In this document: in pieces, positions 1,312 through 38,974 of the stretch | How the letters are laid out: each line of letters opens with the position of its first letter | Position numbering within the stretch: the stretch's first letter is position 1 | Assembly (NCBI GenBank): GCA_012719135.1 | Contig: JAAYAW010000035.1 | Span: 3,799-67,798 of the forward strand | Reading direction: 5' to 3' | Length of the DNA stretch: 64,000 bases | DNA from: Chloroflexota bacterium | GTDB lineage: Bacteria > Chloroflexota > Anaerolineae > UBA1429 | Position numbers and translations under genes: made by a program | The notes under the pieces: model-generated | Told to the model about the DNA's origin: nothing | Databases searched by the model: none | What the model saw: only the letters and a program-made list of their open reading frames with translations

Positions 1312-2715
1312 CTAGCGGCTGACGCGGGCTGCCTCCTCGGTGGGATCGTGGTTGATGCCCACGAAGAGGATGGCTCCGGTGCTATCGTCCTGAAGGACAT
1401 AGAGGAAGGGCCGGTCCGCGAGAAAGGAGAAAGGCTCCTCTGGTGCCGCCGCCTGTGCGCGCAACTCAATCGAGGTGACCGCGGCCGCCTCCGTGCCCTG
1501 CTCGTTCACCTCCACGAAGGACTTGTGGAGGACACCATCGATCCAAGTGGGCTGGTCCATCTCGTGAATCCGGGAAAAGTCGGCTTCGCCTGGGATAAAG
1601 GCACGCTCCATCCCCATTGCCGCCAGCGCGTCATTCAGGCGCGCCTCGAACGACAGCGTGAATCGCGGCAGCGAGACGGTGCCGTCCTTGCGGGTGAGCG
1701 CGCCGACAAGCGCCTGCCACCCACTGGCATCCAGATCATCGAGCCAGGCATCCAGGCTCGTGCCATCCGCGGGTAGCACCGCGATCATACTGAGGCGCCC
1801 CCCGCTGTACGGCAGGCGGACGGCCTGGTAGTCGCCGGAGCGGGCGTATTCCCAGGATCCATAGCGGCTCATCATCAAGGCCTGCACTTGGGCGCCGTCG
1901 GCGCGGGTGAAGGCTTCTTCCGACGTAAGAGACTCATCGAAGGGGGTTTCCCAATCACCCTTAAAGTACACCGCGTTCATGATAAACAGGATCGCGAGAG
2001 GGTCGATGGGTGGGGTAACGATCTCTGTGATGCGCCCGCGGGTTTGGTCGGCAACCCAGCCGTTCATCACGTCAGCCGCCTCGGAGGAGCTGAAGTCCAG
2101 CCCGGACACCCGGGCACCAAAGTACCGCGCCACCGTATCGAGAAAAGTCGTGCGAAAGGGCAGCCCCTGGCGGAGCCAGAGTGCGTTGGCGATATCCAGC
2201 TCAACGCCCAGATCGTCACCGTCGAGCGCCTGGCCAAGGCCGGCGAAGGCCTGGTTGGCAGCCTTCTCGTCCCACCCCTGGAGATGCAGGGCGGCGCGGA
2301 TCCCCTCCTGGGTTTCCCCGCTCGCGCCGTTCGCGGCCATTCCCAGAGCCAACGCGACGCTCACCGGCGAGATGAAGAGGTTCGTTCCTGGCTCCGAGGC
2401 GGCACGGAGCCGTTTCAGCAAGTCCAGCCCCATGGCATTGGCGGAAACGATCTGATCGGGGTTCACAGGATGGTCCTCCAGTTCGCGAGTTTCAGCGTCC
2501 GGGCGGGCGCTGGCCTCAACAGCAGGAGTGCCGGTAGCCGTCTCTCGTGAGGGATCGGCCGCCGCACCCGTTGCAGCCGGGCTTGAGCGGGCGGTGTCGG
2601 TGCTCGATGGTGTGGTCTGGGCCGGCTCTGGCTGGGCATCCGCAGGCGTTTGGCAAGCGTTGACCACAATGGCGAGGGCCAGCAGAAACATGAGTAGTCG
2701 ACTACGGCGTGCCAT
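1312..2715 (-). CDS. Serpin (serine protease inhibitor) with N-terminal signal/lipoprotein-like peptide
   Basis: 467 aa. Canonical serpin motifs are present: FISPVSVALALGMAANGA, NAVYFKGDWETPF, the reactive-centre-loop hinge GTEAAAVTS, and C-terminal FLADRPFLYVLQ. N-terminus is MARRSRLLMFLLALAIVVNAC (signal peptide with Cys). Confidence 0.85.
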   Translation of the reverse strand: MARRSRLLMFLLALAIVVNACQTPADAQPEPAQTTPSSTDTARSSPAATGAAADPSRETATGTPAVEASARPDAETRELEDHPVNPDQIVSANAMGLDLLKRLRAASEPGTNLFISPVSVALALGMAANGASGETQEGIRAALHLQGWDEKAANQAFAGLGQALDGDDLGVELDIANALWLRQGLPFRTTFLDTVARYFGARVSGLDFSSSEAADVMNGWVADQTRGRITEIVTPPIDPLAILFIMNAVYFKGDWETPFDESLTSEEAFTRADGAQVQALMMSRYGSWEYARSGDYQAVRLPYSGGRLSMIAVLPADGTSLDAWLDDLDASGWQALVGALTRKDGTVSLPRFTLSFEARLNDALAAMGMERAFIPGEADFSRIHEMDQPTWIDGVLHKSFVEVNEQGTEAAAVTSIELRAQAAAPEEPFSFLADRPFLYVLQDDSTGAILFVGINHDPTEEAARVSR

Positions 2716-31685: not shown

Positions 31686-34600
31686 CTACGGGCGGAAGGT
31701 TATGGGCATCATCAAGTGGTAGTCGAACTGCTGCGCTTCGACTTTAAAGCTCCCGACGGTAGACCAGGGCCCCTCAGAGGTGCAGCCGCTCTCTGTGCAG
31801 ACGGCGCGGACGCGCCAGAAGTAGTCACCCGCCGGCGCGTGGCTGGCCAGTCGCATGCTCGTGCGTACGGTCGTGGTATCCATCGCCAGCGAGCTGAGCG
31901 AGGCGTCCGAGTAGATCTCCACCTCATAGTAGGAAGCGTTAGCGACCGTCTGCCACGCGAGCTCGGGCTCTTCGTTATAGCCAAAGGTTGTTGCAGCCAG
32001 CGGCGCGACCAGCGATACGGCTGCAGGCAACGGGCAGCTGAGCGTGGTGAAGGACCACCAGGGGCCCGCAGTGGGGCCGTTCAGCCCGACGGAGACGACC
32101 TGCCATTCGTAGACTGTAGCCTCGACCAATTCACCCGGATAACAGCTGGCAGAGCTCAGGTTGGTGCATACGCGTGTCCCCGAGCCGGACCCGCCGGTGC
32201 GCAGATATACGTCGTAGGTTACGTCCTCACCCGGGCAGGTGTGCCCGCCGCACCAGCTCAAAGTGACATCCACTGCCACGCCTGTGGCATCGTCTGCCGG
32301 GGTAGGGTCATACGGAACTGTTGGCGGCACGGTACAGGGCAACTGATCCGTAGTGAACTGCCAGAGGGGCCCGGTGGTGCTGCCCGCCGCGCTGGTCGCC
32401 ACGACCTGCCAGGTATAGGTCTCTCCACCGATCAACCCGCCAGGATTACACGTTGTATCAGAGCCTGAACAGACGAGAGTAGAGGCGCTGCCGCCGGTCC
32501 CCAGGTAGACCTCGTACGTGACGGTCTCGCTCAAGCAGGTGTGCCCCCCAGTCCAGGACAGCGCGCTATCGACGCTCACAGCCTGCGCCGCGTCGGCGGG
32601 GCTGGGCGAAGTGGGTGTGTAGGGCGCCACGGCGCAAGGATCGCTGGAGCCCATGCTCGAGAGGGAGAGCGATGGATCGCCGTACAGGTTGGCGCCCAGA
32701 AGGTTCATCCAGAACCCGCCCGTGGAGTAGAGTGCGCTGTAGGCCCGGAAGTAGGCCAGGGCATCCCCGATCGCGTCGCCATTGGCCGCCAGCCGCTCGC
32801 TGACCCGGTAGCCGATGGAGGCATTGTCCGCCCAACCTGCACCGGTCTTGGGAGTCCAGGCGCCCGTCATGTACCAGCTTAGACGCGAGGAGCTGATGGT
32901 GCCCACCGAGCCGTTCACCAGGAGCCGGTATCCGAGGTTGTCCAGACGCTCCGGTTGCCCGTTCAGGCAGGCGACCTGTACGACAAAGGATGGCCGATCG
33001 TTACTGAGCTGGTAGGTGTCACCCGAACTGAGAAACGTGGGTGAACTGGTCTCCTGCGAGTACTGGGTGATGCGGTCCGCCCGCGTGCTGTCGTTGACCC
33101 AGACGCGCCTGTAGGCCCCCATGTAGTTGCCGTGTCCCCACCAGGTCACGAGGCCGTAGCCTTGGTTCCACGCGCTGATCATATTCGCCGTGCTGAGGGC
33201 GGCATTGGTTAATGTCAACGGGTAGGCTGACCCATCCCCATAGATGCCAGACTTTTCGTAGAGTGTATACGCATCCAGGCTGGCCTCCGCGAGCATGGAT
33301 TTCACGGCCTCGCCCCAGTCATCGCCGTAGGTGCGCTGGCTGAGCTGGTAATCGGCCGTGCCATCGTTGTTATTATCCTGGGGGCCGTGGTTAGAGATGG
33401 CCGCGGCGATGATGGCGCGCTGGCGCCAGGACAGGTCGCCAGTGGCGCTGGCATAGGCCACGGAGCGGGCCAGGATCGCATCCAGATCGGCAAAGGTGCC
33501 GTAGAAGGGAATCCGGCCCACGGTAACCTCGGGCAGCCGGTCAATGCCGCCTGTGCCGATATCGGTGAGTTCGCCATAGGTACCGTTGCCGTTGAGATCC
33601 CAGGTGCCACTCAGGTCCGAGTAGAACATGTCCGTGGGAGTGCTCTGGTACGGGTTCGTGAGCTTCATCGGCACGCTGGTCGCCGAGCTAAAGGCCGTGG
33701 GATCGGGATTGCCCACGAGGAGCACATAGAGGATCCCCTCGGCGGCATAGTGCGCCTGGAGCCAGCTGCGGATGTTGTTGGCGCGGGCATCGGCGGTTGA
33801 CCCAGATAGATACGTGGTTGCCGTGTCAGCCGCGCCCTCCGTGACGACCTTGACGGTGTACCCGTTGGCCTGTTTGTTGGCGACGAACGCAGCGAGTTGC
33901 GCACTGCCATCGCGGATGGACGCCGTGGTGATGATCACATAGTCGTTCGTCGCAGCGGCCTCAGGCCCGTCCGGCAGGGTACCCCGGCCACCGGCCAGCG
34001 GCGCCTGCGGGTAAAAGGCGGTGCGATCCTCAGCGTTCACCAGTTGCGGGGCCAGCATGTCCCAGGCCACTCGCTCAGCGGCGTCGGCCTGTATAACAGA
34101 ACGAAGCTCCTGGCTGAAGGTCACCAACGCGGAGGCGTCGGCGCTCTGCCGCAGCGTGCCCTGAACGGGGTTGTAGGACAGGGGCCAGTAGGAGAGGGTG
34201 ACGACGCGGTAGCCGCGTTGCTCGCCGATCGATTCGATCGTGACGGGATCGGACGGCCAGAAGGCGTCCGCCTCGTAGATGGCCCTGAGTCCGCCTTCGG
34301 CAAGATCGTCCGCCTGCAGTCCGTTCCAGTTCTCCTGCGCCATCTCGTCGCTGGAGATCAGCGGTCCGGCGGGCGGCACAAAGATCGACCCGCCCAGGTC
34401 GGCCGACCCAGATGCCTCAAAGGAGACCGCCACAGAACCAAGGTCTGCGACGGAGGGCAACAGCACCTGCAGTGTTCGCACTGGAAGGCGCGGCTCCCCC
34501 GGGCGCGCATTCAGATCGTATCCCGGAAGCGACAGAGCCTCTTCCATCGGCAGGCTCAGGTCCGGGCTCGCCGCCATCGGCAGATCCACGCGGATGGCAC

Positions 34601-34724
34601 CCGTAGCCGGGGTGCCCAGTGCCACGGACGGCCACGCGCCGAGTGCCAGAACTACCACCAGCACCAGCGCGAGCAGCGCCTGTCCCCGTGCTTTGTTCAA
34701 GATCCCAACTGACTCTCTTCTCAT
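31686..34724 (-). CDS. Secreted peptidase C25 (gingipain-family, clan CD) with three C-terminal fibronectin-III-like domains
   Basis: Signal peptide. C25 catalytic-domain hallmarks (DYVIITT..., His in WWGHGN, Cys in VVQVACLNGQ). It is followed by three ~90-aa repeats with the FN3-like pattern (TYEVYLGTGG...TYTWQVVAT). Confidence 0.7.
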   Translation of the reverse strand: MRRESVGILNKARGQALLALVLVVVLALGAWPSVALGTPATGAIRVDLPMAASPDLSLPMEEALSLPGYDLNARPGEPRLPVRTLQVLLPSVADLGSVAVSFEASGSADLGGSIFVPPAGPLISSDEMAQENWNGLQADDLAEGGLRAIYEADAFWPSDPVTIESIGEQRGYRVVTLSYWPLSYNPVQGTLRQSADASALVTFSQELRSVIQADAAERVAWDMLAPQLVNAEDRTAFYPQAPLAGGRGTLPDGPEAAATNDYVIITTASIRDGSAQLAAFVANKQANGYTVKVVTEGAADTATTYLSGSTADARANNIRSWLQAHYAAEGILYVLLVGNPDPTAFSSATSVPMKLTNPYQSTPTDMFYSDLSGTWDLNGNGTYGELTDIGTGGIDRLPEVTVGRIPFYGTFADLDAILARSVAYASATGDLSWRQRAIIAAAISNHGPQDNNNDGTADYQLSQRTYGDDWGEAVKSMLAEASLDAYTLYEKSGIYGDGSAYPLTLTNAALSTANMISAWNQGYGLVTWWGHGNYMGAYRRVWVNDSTRADRITQYSQETSSPTFLSSGDTYQLSNDRPSFVVQVACLNGQPERLDNLGYRLLVNGSVGTISSSRLSWYMTGAWTPKTGAGWADNASIGYRVSERLAANGDAIGDALAYFRAYSALYSTGGFWMNLLGANLYGDPSLSLSSMGSSDPCAVAPYTPTSPSPADAAQAVSVDSALSWTGGHTCLSETVTYEVYLGTGGSASTLVCSGSDTTCNPGGLIGGETYTWQVVATSAAGSTTGPLWQFTTDQLPCTVPPTVPYDPTPADDATGVAVDVTLSWCGGHTCPGEDVTYDVYLRTGGSGSGTRVCTNLSSASCYPGELVEATVYEWQVVSVGLNGPTAGPWWSFTTLSCPLPAAVSLVAPLAATTFGYNEEPELAWQTVANASYYEVEIYSDASLSSLAMDTTTVRTSMRLASHAPAGDYFWRVRAVCTESGCTSEGPWSTVGSFKVEAQQFDYHLMMPITFRP

Positions 34725-34859
34725 GATCCAGGTCCCCCCACTTGCCCGCCCCTCGCGGGCTGCCTGCCTCGCAGGCAGAGCACGGTTCGCGCACCAGTAG
34801 CCAAATTCATGGTGCCTTTTGGTCTCGCTCTGCCCACATGATAGCGCGTGGGGTACCTG

Positions 34860-35010
34860 GTTGGCAACATTTATGCCGTGTTTACGTAAGTGGATATCTG
34901 ATTACATCATCTCAGTATGTGTAAATCATACATAAGCTGGCGCATATTCGTTTCTCGCGTTATCAGCAAGTGCACATCGTTATACTATAGTATATATTGT
35001 TCTCAGCGGG
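34860..35010. promoter_or_regulatory. AT-rich (~35% GC) intergenic island containing perfect 14-bp palindrome TATACTATAGTATA (34981-34994); probable promoter/operator region of C25 peptidase gene
   Basis: Sharp local GC drop in a 67%-GC genome. Contains TTACGTAA and the 14-bp perfect palindrome. Located 135-285 nt upstream of the peptidase start codon (34724). Confidence 0.35.
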
Positions 35011-35146
35011 CATTGAACGAGGCCTGACGACCGGCCCAGGGTAGAGCGGAGACGTCTGCGTAAAGACGCCAAAGAGGGATCAGGGTGTTCTCACAAGCTT
35101 TTTACGTATCGGGGGCGTATCGCGGGGATAAGGGAAGGGTAAACAG

Positions 35147-35713
35147 CTAGGGTTTGCGCGCACCGGGCTTGAGCGTGGCGACGAGGGGAAGATTACGAAA
35201 GTAGGAGGCTGAGTCGAGGCCGTAGCCCACCACGAACTCGTCAGGGAGCTCCAGCCCCCGGTAGGCGAGGGGCACATCGATGAGCCGGCGGTAGGGGCGG
35301 TCAAACAGCACGGCGACCTGGATGGAGGCCGGCTGGCGTGTGCGCAGTGTGCGAAGCAGATAGGCCAGGCTCAGCCCGGTATCGATCACGTCCTCAACAA
35401 AGAGCACGTGCCGGCCCGTGATCGGCAGATCAAGGTCCTTGACGATGCGCACCGTGCCTGAGGATGACTCCGGGCCATAGTGCGAGATGGCCATGAAATC
35501 CACGGCAACCGGGATGGAGATGGACCGTAACAGGTCCGCCATAAAGAGGACCACGCCGGTGAGGACGCCGACGAGGACGGGCTTCCTGTCGGCATAGTCG
35601 GCGCTGATGCGGGCGCCCATGGCGGCCACCGCCTCCTGAATCTCCTCGGTGCTCACGACCACCCGGTCGATGCGATCCAGAAGGCCGCCCTCACGGGGCT
35701 CAGTGCTCGTCAT
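35147..35713 (-). CDS. hpt: Hypoxanthine(-guanine) phosphoribosyltransferase
   Basis: 188 aa. PRPP-binding motif VLFVEDVIDTGLSL, plus the HPRT-typical VLVGVLTGVVLFMADL and LPDEFVVGYGLD. Confidence 0.9.
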   Translation of the reverse strand: MTSTEPREGGLLDRIDRVVVSTEEIQEAVAAMGARISADYADRKPVLVGVLTGVVLFMADLLRSISIPVAVDFMAISHYGPESSSGTVRIVKDLDLPITGRHVLFVEDVIDTGLSLAYLLRTLRTRQPASIQVAVLFDRPYRRLIDVPLAYRGLELPDEFVVGYGLDSASYFRNLPLVATLKPGARKP

Positions 35714-36125
35714 GGCTCAGCGCCCCTTTGCCGACGAGCTCCTCGGAATGCTCCTCACGACCGTAGCGACCCAGCATCCACTCAAAGTCTTTCCGATTCC
35801 ACAGTTTGATGCGAACATCCGGATACAGGCGTGCCAGCTCGCGCAGCTTGCGACGCTTTAGGCGGATCAGCTTCTGGCGGAGAGTGGTTAGCTCGACATA
35901 GAGATCCTGATCCACGAGATAAAAGTCAGGGGAAAACGCCTCCGTGATGTTCCCATGCTCGTCCCACTGGAGAGGAAAGGTGAACGGCTCGTACTCCCAG
36001 CGGATACCGTAAAAGTCCAGGACCCGGGCGAACTCGGCCTCACTGGGATGGGCAAAATCGATGGCTTTCTTCGGTTTGGACGGATTACGGAACGGCCGAG
36101 GTCTTGAGGGTGCGGCGTCTTGCAT
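35700..36125 (-). CDS. Hypothetical protein (conserved-looking, basic N-terminus), co-operonic with hpt
   Basis: Start MQDAAPS, assigned by amino-acid offset from the ORF end. A 14-nt overlap with the hpt start implies translational coupling. No motif recognised. Confidence 0.5.
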   Translation of the reverse strand: MQDAAPSRPRPFRNPSKPKKAIDFAHPSEAEFARVLDFYGIRWEYEPFTFPLQWDEHGNITEAFSPDFYLVDQDLYVELTTLRQKLIRLKRRKLRELARLYPDVRIKLWNRKDFEWMLGRYGREEHSEELVGKGALSHDEH

Positions 36126-36212
36126 GCAGGTGGTCTCAATCCTCCCGGGAGCTCGCTTATCTGGCCGCATTATAGACGGGGAAGGCACTCTGTCAACGGT
36201 GGGGACGGGGGC

Positions 36213-36506
36213 AACATAGAAAGGCCGCCATCCCCGTATCGGGATGGCGGCCTTCTCTCACACAGCGCAAGACCCCAAGTGACCGCTTCAGCGATCCATA
36301 CACCTTCGTTGTTAACGGAGTTTCTTCTCCACTAGCTCGAGTGAATCACCTTTCCCGTAACCGGTACTTGCTGATGGCTTTAGGTAGCAACTCTCGCCGC
36401 CATCTATAGACCACGAACGGCCCTCCGGGTTCCCACCCGGGAACATTCCGCTCACTCGGCTATTCAGTTGTGTATGAACTGCTTCTCCGACCTCTCAGGG
36501 CCTTGC
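36213..36506 (-). ncRNA. Candidate ORF-less structured RNA: ~290-nt leader (riboswitch/attenuator-like) or sRNA upstream of DUF-hpt operon
   Basis: Bounded by a sigma70-like promoter (36513-36541) and the intrinsic terminator (36223-36252). No ORF >60 aa on the minus strand, and GC is lower (~50%). Contains local hairpins (e.g. GUUCCC-GGGU-GGGAAC). Does not match purine, T-box or SRP consensus by eye. Confidence 0.35.
36223..36252 (-). terminator. Intrinsic terminator (12-bp perfect stem, 6-nt loop, U-rich tail on minus strand)
   Basis: GGCCGCCATCCC-cgtatc-GGGATGGCGGCC, followed on the minus strand by UUUCUAUGUU. Lies ~100 nt upstream of the DUF-hpt operon start. Confidence 0.6.
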
Positions 36507-36512
36507 ACCCAC

Positions 36513-36541
36513 ATAGTACAATACTCCCCGGGCGATGTCAA
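36513..36541 (-). promoter_or_regulatory. Sigma70-like promoter on minus strand: TTGACA (36541-36536), 17-nt spacer, TACTAT (36518-36513)
   Basis: Perfect -35, a 17-nt spacer and a 4/6 match at -10. Oriented toward the leader and the DUF-hpt operon. Confidence 0.45.
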
Positions 36542-36571
36542 TACCTCGGGGCGACTTTTGTGCCAAACTGG

Positions 36572-38974
36572 TCACGTCAGAGCGTGCACCTGCAATACGG
36601 CAGAAGCGGCGGCCAGAGAACCGGCGGAAGCCGATACGGTGATGGCCCCCGGTTCGCCGGTCGTACGCACGACGCACATCAGGCGGCCTTCGTAGGCATG
36701 CCGTGTGGGCCCCACGTAAGGCTCCTCGGAGAATGGATCCGCCGTTCCCATCGCCACCAGGTCGCCCGGCCCGGACACCTCGATGTAAACGGCATCGTCA
36801 GCCCAGGGAACCCGGCTGCCCTCGGCGTCCACCACCGTGACGGTAACGTAAGATAGGTCCCCATACGCCGGCTCCAGCACATTCCTGTCAGGATGCAGCT
36901 GCAAGGCTGCCGGTGGTCCCGCTGTGCGCAGGAACGCACGGCCTGATTCGGCGCCGTCGCGATAGGCGATCGCCTCCAGCGTACCTGGCTCGTAGATGAC
37001 GTCAAAGCGCGCCACGTTCTCGCCAGCCGCACCAGCTTCCGTCCGGCCCAGCGATCTGCCGTTCAGGATGAGCTCTACCTCATCATCAGCCGAATAGACG
37101 TCCACCCTGGTGGCGCGCCCCTCTTTCCCGGGAAACGTCCAACTCTCGGTAACGGGCTCCCAGCTCCAGGGGCTAGAATGGAGCGGACGCCCATGGTCCA
37201 CAGGATCGAGCACCAGAATGCAGGGCCCCGTTTGCACGCCCCACAGCACATCGCGATAGAAGGAGGGGGCGCGCTTGAATCCGCAGATGTCGATATCCCC
37301 GCAGTTCGCCAGGTGATAGGGGTAGGGAGCCCCAAAGCCGGAGCCGGGTTCGTAGCTCACGCGCCCGATTCCGCTTTCGCCCAGGTAGTCGATCGCCGTC
37401 CAGACAAAGTCGCCAATCACCTGGGGCAGAGCCTCCGTCGCGCGCCAGGTGGCATACGCCATGGCTGGAAAGGTCTCCGTGCCGGCCATCACGCGATCCG
37501 GAAAGCGGCGTGAGTCATGGTCATAGCGCGGGTAGAGATAGTTGTAGCCGACGACATCCAGAGCCCTACAGAAGGGAGCGGTAAGCCTGCCCCATACTTC
37601 GGATTCCTCATCCGCCGGGATGAGCCGCGCAGGATCGAACATGCTCTGGGCATCGGTGACGCTTTCGGGCGCAGTCAGCGCGTCCTGGAACACGGCCTCA
37701 AAGAGAAAGGGCAGCGCACTGGTGACCGGACGGGTGCCGTCGAGGGAGCGCACAAAATCCGCCTGCCTCTGCGCCCAGACATAGCCGTCGGACACGCCGG
37801 CACGTTCGGGGACCTCGTTCCCGATGGACCACATGATCACGGCCGGATGGTTGAGATCACGCCTCACCATCGAGGCCGTATCACGCGCCCACCACTCCTC
37901 AAAGTACAGGTGATAGTCATTTGGGTTCTTGCCTGTACGCCAGCAGTCAAAGGTCTCATCGATCACCAGCATCCCCAGCCGGTCACAGGCATCCAGGAGA
38001 GCCGGTGCGGGGGGATTGTGGGCACAGCGGATGGCGTTGTAGCCCGCGGCGAGCAGCAACTCGACCTTGCGCTCCTCGGCGCGGGCATAGCTGGCAGCGC
38101 CCAGCAGGCCGTTGTCGTGGTGCACGCAGCCCCCTTTGAGTTTGATCGTGCTGCCGTTCAAGCGGAAACCATGGCGAGCGTCCACGCTGATCGTCCGGAT
38201 CCCGAGCGGGATCGTCGCCTCGTCGCACACCCGGCCATCGACGACAAGCTCCGCGTTGAGGCGGTAGAGATAGGGATCGCCGAGGGACCAGGGACGTGGC
38301 CGGGGAACCCGCAACTCCTGCTCGGCCAGGCCTGCGCGCGCATCCACAGGCGCCTCTGTCTGGGCAACCGGCTCACCGTCGGCATCCAGTATGCGGATGC
38401 GCAGGTGCGCCTCCGATCCGGCCAGCCCGGCCGTCTCGGCTGAGACGCGCACCCGAGCGGACTCGGAGGAAAGCTCGGCCGTCGTGGCGTAGAGGCCCCA
38501 GGGTTCGATGTGGGCGCCCTCGCCGACATGCAGGCATACCGGCCTGTAGATCCCTGTTCCGGTGTACCAGCGCGAGTTGGGTTGTGCGCTGTTGTTCACG
38601 AGGACGCTGAGCACGTTATCTTGCCCGTACTTGAGGCCGCCCGCCAGATCGACGAGAAACCCTGTATAGCCGTAGGGGTGGCGGGCCAGCAGGTCACTGT
38701 TCAACGTGACCTCGGCGTTCATATACACGCCCTCGAACTCCAGCTGGACCGACTTGCCTCGCCAGGATTCTAGCACGTGGAACACCTTGCGGTAGGTCAC
38801 CAGGCCGCTCCAAGCATAGCCTCCTCCGCCGCCGGTCGGGTGGGCCGCACTGCGTGGCCGCTCGATGGAGACATCATGCGGCAGGTGAACGGGCGTCCAT
38901 TCCACACCCGGCGGAACCGACATTCCCGCATGAACAGAGTACTCCCAGTCCGCATCAAAGCTCGTCCTTTGCAC
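36572..38974 (-). CDS. Glycoside hydrolase family 2 (beta-galactosidase/beta-mannosidase/beta-glucuronidase-type)
   Basis: N-terminal sugar-binding region (FDADWEYS), TIM barrel with the acid/base motif VIMWSIGNEVPE, and GH2-typical length. The start is reassigned to GTG 38974 (AGAAGGAGA 6 nt upstream), which avoids a 73-nt overlap with the SCP2 gene. Confidence 0.85.
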   Translation of the reverse strand: MQRTSFDADWEYSVHAGMSVPPGVEWTPVHLPHDVSIERPRSAAHPTGGGGGYAWSGLVTYRKVFHVLESWRGKSVQLEFEGVYMNAEVTLNSDLLARHPYGYTGFLVDLAGGLKYGQDNVLSVLVNNSAQPNSRWYTGTGIYRPVCLHVGEGAHIEPWGLYATTAELSSESARVRVSAETAGLAGSEAHLRIRILDADGEPVAQTEAPVDARAGLAEQELRVPRPRPWSLGDPYLYRLNAELVVDGRVCDEATIPLGIRTISVDARHGFRLNGSTIKLKGGCVHHDNGLLGAASYARAEERKVELLLAAGYNAIRCAHNPPAPALLDACDRLGMLVIDETFDCWRTGKNPNDYHLYFEEWWARDTASMVRRDLNHPAVIMWSIGNEVPERAGVSDGYVWAQRQADFVRSLDGTRPVTSALPFLFEAVFQDALTAPESVTDAQSMFDPARLIPADEESEVWGRLTAPFCRALDVVGYNYLYPRYDHDSRRFPDRVMAGTETFPAMAYATWRATEALPQVIGDFVWTAIDYLGESGIGRVSYEPGSGFGAPYPYHLANCGDIDICGFKRAPSFYRDVLWGVQTGPCILVLDPVDHGRPLHSSPWSWEPVTESWTFPGKEGRATRVDVYSADDEVELILNGRSLGRTEAGAAGENVARFDVIYEPGTLEAIAYRDGAESGRAFLRTAGPPAALQLHPDRNVLEPAYGDLSYVTVTVVDAEGSRVPWADDAVYIEVSGPGDLVAMGTADPFSEEPYVGPTRHAYEGRLMCVVRTTGEPGAITVSASAGSLAAASAVLQVHALT

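Follow-up and report, generated by a model that had tools for sequence, protein, structure and literature searches.

A probable gene for a structured non-coding RNA upstream of a DUF-hpt operon in an Anaerolineae genome

In a 64,000-nt stretch of DNA from a Chloroflexota bacterium of the class Anaerolineae (contig JAAYAW010000035.1, positions 3,799 to 67,798; the whole stretch is referred to below as the window), a predicted promoter-to-terminator unit lies ahead of hpt and of the gene that precedes it, which codes for a protein with a domain of unknown function (DUF). Is this unit a regulatory leader of the DUF-hpt operon, or is it a gene in its own right? An earlier reading of the locus (the original prediction) had favored a riboswitch or attenuator leader and had named an independent small RNA (sRNA) as the fallback. 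Taken as a whole, our comparisons were best explained by an independent gene for a non-coding RNA (ncRNA) of an uncatalogued Anaerolineae family, most plausibly a trans-acting protein-binding or scaffold RNA, and we consider this combined reading probable.

Promoters and terminator of the unit

All coordinates refer to the minus strand of the window, and the RNA core is taken to begin and end with the outermost bases of its closing helix, P1. The unit and the promoter that follows it comprise the following features.

36541-36513, minus strand: promoter of the RNA gene, with a -35 hexamer TTGACA (36541-36536), a 17-nt spacer and a -10 hexamer TACTAT (36518-36513)
36506-36267, minus strand: RNA core, 240 nt, supported by fold z-score, family-profile nhmmer match and covariation
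36266-36213, minus strand: 3' tail of the primary transcript, a predicted intrinsic terminator made up of a U/G-rich linker (36266-36253), a hairpin (36252-36223) and a U-tail (36222-36213)
36196-36169, minus strand: promoter of DUF-hpt, TTGACA-16-TATAAT, matching 12 of 12 positions in the promoter scan; context, outside the RNA gene

The sigma-70 promoter of the RNA was found exactly as first described. Every one of the 11 aligned homologs, and the metagenome copies as well, has an unchanged TTGACA and, at a constant distance from it, a conserved -10 region that mostly reads TGCTAYTAT. Where the sequence of a copy was read through the promoter, P1 begins 7 nt past the -10 hexamer, which is the usual +1 position; the predicted +1 in the window is G36506. 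A 4-kb scan returned four promoter-like sites, with 1.0 expected.

The GC-rich hairpin and U-tail were likewise present. On the DNA level the hairpin reads GGCCGCCATCCC / GATACG / GGGATGGCGGCC (36252-36223), followed by TTTCTATGTT (36222-36213); as RNA it forms a perfect 12-bp stem, GGCCGCCAUCCC-GAUACG-GGGAUGGCGGCC, with the U-tail UUUCUAUGUU, and together with its flanks it reaches a fold energy of -34.7 kcal/mol. The hairpin was absent from the output of a simple terminator scan. Fifteen of the 20 family members examined, the window included, have a strong hairpin (-19.7 to -34.8 kcal/mol) no more than 60 nt from the 3' end of P1, and in most of these a T-run comes next; most homologs carry a GC-rich hairpin of different sequence plus a T-run at the terminator position. 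Judged by sequence motifs only, the unit has a promoter and a terminator of its own, as a stand-alone ncRNA gene should, and its primary transcript would measure ∼292 nt with the terminator included. In most family members, a U/G-rich linker (YUUUGU-like; 36253-36266 in the window) stands straight after the 3' strand of P1 and before the terminator hairpin. Transcription might first terminate at this linker, or a protein might bind it as a single strand.

The drop in GC content reported for the unit is real, but smaller than the ∼50% against ∼67% originally given: GC is 54.6% in the RNA core and 55.0% over 36213-36541, compared with 65.8% for the whole window.

Missed at first was the perfect promoter at 36196-36169. 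It starts 17 nt past the U-tail, ahead of the DUF ATG, which follows 87 nt past the U-tail (the distance had been put at ∼100 nt). Because TTGACA-16-TATAAT sits between the U-tail and the DUF ATG, DUF-hpt can be assigned a consensus promoter of its own, with a leader that is short (about 37 nt). All nine genome homologs have a perfect TTGACA-16-TATAAT between the RNA terminator and the DUF ATG, with sequence and spacing strictly kept (at locus L014 the script chose another register, and TTGACA-16-TATAAT is readable in the sequence). A second promoter within the 87-nt gap changes the reading of the locus entirely.

Fold and covariation

The RNA of the window folded with -138 kcal/mol, compared with -99 ± 5 kcal/mol for shuffled sequences, none of which (0 of 200) was as good (z = -7.96). 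Given this z-score and the conservation in related genomes and metagenomes, the unit is more than a chance arrangement. Its predicted elements are as follows.

36506-36494 / 36279-36267, minus strand: P1, closing helix, whose outer pairs covary (GC/AU swaps)
36492-36488 / 36285-36281, minus strand: P1b; the 5' stretch 36506-36488 holds a near-invariant GAGRG
36285-36267, minus strand: 3' strands of P1 and P1b, holding the invariant GGUCACUUG
36483-36470 / 36303-36290, minus strand: P2, long-range helix extending the P1 rod
36462-36333, minus strand: P3 domain, closed by helix P3 (36462-36452 / 36344-36333)
36451-36413, minus strand: P3a, junction arm
36412-36376, minus strand: P3b, junction arm with a GAGA tetraloop
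36375-36345, minus strand: P3c, junction arm
36330-36317, minus strand: P4, hairpin GGAG-AAGAAA-CUCC (family consensus GGAGRAGAMACUCC), with a stem that never varies
36316-36304, minus strand: J4/2, joiner GUUAACAACGAAG, single-stranded and A-rich, containing the conserved AACGA

P3 opens into a four-way junction without unpaired joiners, from which the arms P3a, P3b and P3c emanate. When the 20 distinct members were folded one by one to minimum energy, most showed the same architecture. Invariant positions fall into four clusters, namely, inner P1 (GAGRG/CACUUG with an A-A mismatch), the purine-rich internal loops between P1b and P2, P4 and AACGA. The size of the P3 domain differs from member to member, with an enlarged domain in L101, a smaller one in the L090b copy and a duplicated one in L097. 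A sequence that had been likened to a T-box element, GGGUGGGAACCCGG, turned out to be the tip of the P3a hairpin, the loop of which differs between members (UGGGAA, UGGAAG, GUAAGA, GUGGUC), and no Rfam T-box model matched. A pseudoknot between the P4 loop (AGAC) and an upstream GUCU was considered and rejected, since the two strands do not covary (in the window and in L101 the loop reads AGAA, and nothing has changed to compensate for this) and the loops are too short to allow it sterically.

RNAalifold, applied to 10 sequences, returned a 17-bp P1/P1b helix with compensatory changes. A consensus structure was taken as the majority vote of individual folds and scored on tool alignments. Pairing was found in 90.8% of cells in subfamily I (eight sequences; slid controls, 33 to 45%) and in 86.6% in subfamily II (nine sequences; slid controls, 28 to 44%), percentages that are inflated because the voted structure was built from the same sequences on which it was scored. 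Double-sided changes occurred in 17 pairs in subfamily I (controls, 1 to 5) and in 21 pairs in subfamily II (controls, 3 to 8), with covariation scores of 0.200 (controls, 0.04 to 0.09) and 0.315 (controls, 0.05 to 0.10), respectively. P3, P3a and P3b were 94 to 98% paired with double-sided changes in subfamily I and were recovered with covariation in subfamily II as well. Since P2 aligns poorly, it was tested without an alignment: cognate 5' and 3' strands paired with a mean of -18.9 kcal/mol, compared with -11.6 kcal/mol for noncognate strands (permutation p < 5e-5), and clear compensatory blocks were seen in P2 of L094 and L100. The comparison of homologs that had been proposed along with the original prediction thus revealed both conservation and covariation, i.e., the conserved secondary structure with compensatory changes that marks a stand-alone ncRNA.

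No conserved reading frame accompanies this structure. The statement that the unit lacks an open reading frame (ORF) was strictly wrong, as a 47-amino-acid (aa) ORF with a GTG start lies at 36455-36312, but it holds for conserved frames. This ORF is the one point in favor of the unit being an mRNA for a small protein, to which we give next to no credence: close homologs have the ORF with a broken frame or not at all, no ORF of at least 25 aa exists in L010 or L094, alignment indels are not multiples of three, and substitutions keep base pairs rather than codons.

Searches against known RNA families agreed with the failure to match the leader by eye to guanine/adenine, ZTP, T-box or signal recognition particle RNAs, in that Rfam, too, gave no riboswitch or T-box match and assigned no family to the unit. 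At gathering thresholds, Rfam 15 had no matches in the whole window; at E ≤ 10, the region 36050-36700 gave only weak matches (15.9 to 19.8 bits), of which three were sRNA families centered on the terminator hairpin and one was an archaeal snoRNA model in the RNA body. Rfam likewise returned no match for 20 genome loci, and in seven divergent metagenome loci none that overlapped the RNA (E ≤ 5 for 6S). A tmRNA or tRNA identity was rejected, with ARAGORN and Rfam both finding zero such genes in the window. Full-text literature searches, one of them worded too broadly to help, turned up no account of this RNA and nothing published on Anaerolineae ncRNAs.

Family members and genomic neighborhoods

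With a profile of the DUF protein, 80 genome loci were collected, in which the RNA was sought by blastn, nhmmer and an iterated profile. It stands directly upstream of DUF in nine of them (L007 to L012, L014, L024 and L059), with two tandem copies in L024; a family-wide nhmmer profile found no more copies in the other 71. At L020, a match to the 5' motif upstream of the DUF gene was due to chance, and no RNA is present there. In the window, the family profile matched exactly 36506-36267 (E = 7e-45), the sole copy.

Metagenome contigs were scanned with the conserved pattern GGAGRAGAMACTCC...AACGA...GGYCACTTG, which yielded 16 loci recorded as holding the full RNA with the same promoter. The copy at L091 (2515-2705, minus strand) departs from this description, as it keeps P3 to P4 and the 3' strand of P1 but lacks both the 5' P1/P2 strand and the promoter; we take it for a decayed pseudogene or else for a chimera created by assembly. 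DUF-hpt follows downstream in 6 of the 16 loci. At least seven distinct loci (L090, L091, L097/L102, L098, L099, L100 and L101) are without DUF or hpt, and their neighbors are mutually unrelated; L092 and L094 are too short for this linkage to be judged.

The RNA is typically 240 to 275 nt long, with a family range of 190 to 455 nt. Tandem paralogs occur in L024/L095 and in L090, each copy having its own promoter and terminator, and L088 and L092 represent two copies on one 150-kb contig (UOXR01000043). The longest form, 455 nt, was found in L097 (1245-1699, minus strand) and L102 (3923-4377, minus strand), in which the P3 domain, the P4 hairpin (GGAGGAGAMACUCC) and AACGA occur twice in tandem within one P1-P2 rod, a natural internal duplication. 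At the other extreme, L090 carries a 190-nt mini-paralog (approximately 2322-2511, minus strand) in tandem with a full-length copy; it is without P3a and P3b and has GGAGAAGGCACUCC in P4, which suggests that the core can do without the P3 arms.

Within the DUF-linked clade, the gene upstream of the RNA is GH2 in the window, L007 to L010 and L087, and other genes in L011, L012, L014, L024 and L059. Because the upstream gene differs within this clade, the adjacency of RNA and DUF is kept within one lineage and is not universal. So far, the family has been found only in Anaerolineae. An origin from a phage or mobile element was rejected: viral contigs gave no matches to the family pattern, and no transposase or reverse transcriptase was among the neighboring ORFs listed (an ORF list without domain search).

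The second promoter, the loci without DUF/hpt, the tandem paralogs and the duplicated 455-nt form are the grounds on which we regard the RNA as an independent gene and not a leader. Together, the sequence comparisons show a predicted separate transcription unit whose conserved RNA has an elaborate fold and no fixed link to hpt, and the unit is very likely an independent gene for a highly structured ncRNA. The fallback of an independent sRNA was in this sense strongly supported, with the RNA exceeding a typical sRNA in size and in complexity of fold.

The downstream genes of the window are listed here for context only.

36125-35147, minus strand: downstream operon, DUF gene and hpt
36125-35700, minus strand: DUF gene, 141 aa, with the ATG at 36125, in agreement with public gene calls
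35713-35147, minus strand: hpt, 188 aa, matching the HGPRTase model TIGR01203 with 176 bits (cutoff, 150 bits)

By its profile match, hpt is predicted to encode a bona fide HGPRTase. Its reading frame overlaps that of DUF by 14 nt (35700-35713), which makes the translational coupling noted earlier plausible. The DUF protein has no Pfam or NCBIfam match. It has 2,975 homologs, the named ones being Chloroflexi or Anaerolineae metagenome-assembled genomes (MAGs); homologs are mostly from Chloroflexi, with further loci labeled Bacillota/Firmicutes, Clostridia, Methylomirabilota and Atribacteria. Three motifs, HPSExEF, PDFxL and ELTT, are invariant, and the profile matched phage T7 endonuclease I (3cae) weakly (E = 0.0028). 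The protein may be of a PD-(D/E)xK-type nuclease fold, conserved beside hpt.

Gene content within ±4 kb of the unit comprises GH2, SCP2-like, DUF, hpt and C25 peptidase genes. The last of these (31686-34724, minus strand) codes for a secreted-looking protein of 1,012 aa with a peptidase C25 (gingipain-like) domain and a propeptide, and the same gene follows hpt in L011, L012, L014 and L093. Between hpt and the C25 gene lies an AT-rich gap of 420 nt (34725-35146, minus strand; GC, 43 to 47%) that holds a promoter-like TTGCCA-18-TATCAT (34867-34838). As its fold z-score is just -1.7, this gap looks like an ordinary promoter or leader region and not a second RNA gene.

Alternative explanations and possible role

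A cis-acting riboswitch or attenuation leader would let a ligand or tRNA decide, for transcription begun at the 36541 promoter, between a stop at the 36223 hairpin and read-through into DUF-hpt. The layout invites this explanation, as promoter, structured RNA and terminator have the same orientation as, and lie directly upstream of, a purine-salvage operon, as in purine, PRPP, ppGpp and xanthine riboswitches and T-box leaders upstream of hpt/xpt, where a structured domain is followed by an intrinsic terminator; moreover, the structured domain is aptamer-sized, and one clade keeps the RNA next to DUF-hpt despite a changed upstream gene. However, the conserved perfect promoter between terminator and DUF separates the RNA from the 5' untranslated region of the operon transcript, the loci without DUF/hpt leave no consistent class of downstream genes, and tandem copies each bring their own promoter and terminator. 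The 18-bp P1/P1b helix is far too stable for ligand gating and is parted from the terminator by the linker, and no purine, ykkC/PRPP/ppGpp, NMT1, ZTP or T-box model matched at E ≤ 10. The 5' strand of P3b, GAUGGCGGC (36396-36404), does repeat the 3' arm of the terminator (36223-36234) and could pair with its 5' arm as an antiterminator would; this pairing, the sole alternative pairing looked for, is specific to the window and not kept in homologs, and the complementarity is probably a coincidence. The leader hypothesis first put forward is largely refuted, and we hold it to be very unlikely.

Among trans-acting alternatives, a functional analogue of 6S RNA or Ms1, present in abundance and adjusting transcription globally through its binding of RNA polymerase, would share with the present RNA a strong housekeeping-type promoter, a long irregular rod with internal loops closed by the 5' and 3' ends, and an asymmetric junction, here bearing the short hairpin P4 together with an A-rich strand. 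The 6S genes of the Bacillus cereus group have likewise been reported to have paralogs, some of them in tandem, and the 190-nt L090b copy falls within the 153 to 237 nt of canonical 6S RNAs (PMC7726162). Against this, no Rfam 6S match was found in the window (E ≤ 10) or in seven divergent members (E ≤ 5), the typical length is 240 to 275 nt (up to 455 nt), and the distal part is a branched four-way junction with three hairpin arms and GNRA loops in place of the terminal stem. The rod also lacks the large two-sided central bubble of a 6S-like fold, the known distribution is narrow, and canonical 6S RNAs have been reported in Chloroflexi (PMC7726162, citing Wehner 2014), so that no replacement is needed. 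We judge such a role quite improbable. Only a little less doubtful is a base-pairing sRNA (Hfq-type or similar) with the AACGA joiner or the P4 loop as seed for mRNAs. In favor of this function are a promoter and an intrinsic terminator belonging to the RNA itself, the U/G-rich stretch that precedes the hairpin and the U-tail that follows it, and a conserved single-stranded A-rich segment of ∼10 nt, but the size, the four-way junction, the long covarying helices and the invariant helix bases are atypical, an A-rich joiner is more typical of tertiary A-minor contacts, and sites complementary to the joiner were not in excess in the window (five, one of them the RNA itself, with 3.6 expected).

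The inner part of P1 (5' CGAGAG / 3' CACUUG) may resemble the conserved Ro-binding helix of human Y RNAs. A bacterial Y RNA whose closing stem binds an Ro60/Rsr orthologue would, like YrlA and YrlB, combine a terminal stem containing conserved bases with a modular internal domain and occur in more than one copy per genome. Bacterial Y RNAs, however, are 80 to 130 nt long, are encoded on the same strand as rsr and no more than 4 kb from it, have the 5' motif GNCGAAN0-1G and carry tRNA-like T/D arms (PMC4201824). The RNAs described here are about twice that size (190 to 455 nt), only 3 of 20 members have the 5' motif, the fold contains no tRNA-like module, Rfam gave no match, and no rsr/TROVE gene is among the genes within ±4 kb; we regard this identity as extremely unlikely. 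A 6S-like role in binding RNA polymerase, seed pairing and a cis role in the DUF-hpt clade are possible, each at low probability.

For the independent ncRNA gene, the following course of events is proposed. Transcription would probably start at the first base of P1 from the near-consensus sigma-70-type promoter and end at the RNA's own intrinsic terminator, while DUF-hpt would be transcribed separately from its perfect consensus promoter. The 5' and 3' ends would be locked in the ∼18-bp helix, as would suit a stable RNA, and the P1-P2 rod would carry the variable four-way-junction domain (P3 with P3a to P3c), the invariant P4 and the A-rich AACGA joiner. The RNA may then work in trans as a stable protein-binding or scaffold RNA, with inner P1 (GAGRG/CACUUG and the A-A mismatch), the purine-rich loops, P4 and AACGA as the recognition surface and the variable P3 domain supplying folding and stability. 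Because invariant bases lie in helices and joiners while the outer helices covary, a surface for protein or tertiary contacts suggests itself, and the recognition reading is further based on a P3 module that is variable, expandable and even duplicable. The invariant core points to a protein recognition surface, with a ligand-binding or a tertiary or catalytic center appearing less likely, and a modular binding unit would agree with the duplication of P3, P4 and AACGA inside one P1 frame. That the RNA acts by protein binding or scaffolding is nevertheless a tentative assignment, to which we give somewhat less than even weight.

Several observations weigh against this interpretation. Transcript ends and abundance are read from sequence motifs alone, the family sample is small (∼20 distinct sequences), no partner protein emerged, and no gene was found to co-occur with the RNA across its contexts. 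The four pairs of P4 are invariant and lend sequence conservation only, not covariation support. In subfamily I, a local hairpin is predicted that competes with the 5' strand of P2; it corresponds to nonhomologous columns in different clades, and because of it the exact fold around this strand is modeled less firmly. Finally, one clade keeps the RNA directly upstream of DUF-hpt even where the upstream gene changes, and a local functional link between the two is possible there.

Of the RNAs known in other bacteria, the raiA motif RNA and, more loosely, OLE, ROOL and GOLLD come closest in kind. They, too, stand alone in varied contexts without an expression platform and have complex multihelix folds in which invariant blocks are combined with covarying helices; as in raiA, the family is lineage restricted and its neighbors do not reveal its function (PMC10861870). 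None of their Rfam models matched, OLE, ROOL and GOLLD are larger, and raiA is single-copy and essentially absent from Anaerolineae (PMC10861870), whereas the RNA described here has paralogs and is so far Anaerolineae specific. Purine, PRPP, ppGpp and xanthine riboswitches and T-box leaders differ from it by the independent promoter that intervenes here, by its occurrence away from hpt, by a closing helix that is not ligand gated, by the variable hairpin loop that stands in for the T-box-like sequence and by the lack of any model match. The family is thus a new one within a known kind, that of lineage-specific structured ncRNA genes.

The locus illustrates that a promoter, a structured RNA and a terminator in front of a metabolic operon need not mean a riboswitch. 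With the family consensus now defined, a covariance model can be built and Chloroflexota MAGs can be annotated. Complex-folded orphan ncRNAs are uncommon and have repeatedly proved to be ribozymes, ribonucleoprotein scaffolds or global regulators, and Anaerolineae, which are hard to culture, belong to the most abundant bacteria of anaerobic digesters, sediments and sludge. We see the significance of the finding as moderate and not paradigm changing: a mid-size, covariation-supported orphan RNA with an unusual modular duplication in an understudied lineage. On balance, we lean slightly toward regarding it as the founding example of a new Anaerolineae-specific class of complex-folded ncRNAs with a duplicable module, the core of which would bind a protein or ligand or be catalytic. 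If so, it would hint at a part for RNA in some cellular process with which RNA has so far not been connected in this abundant and poorly studied lineage.

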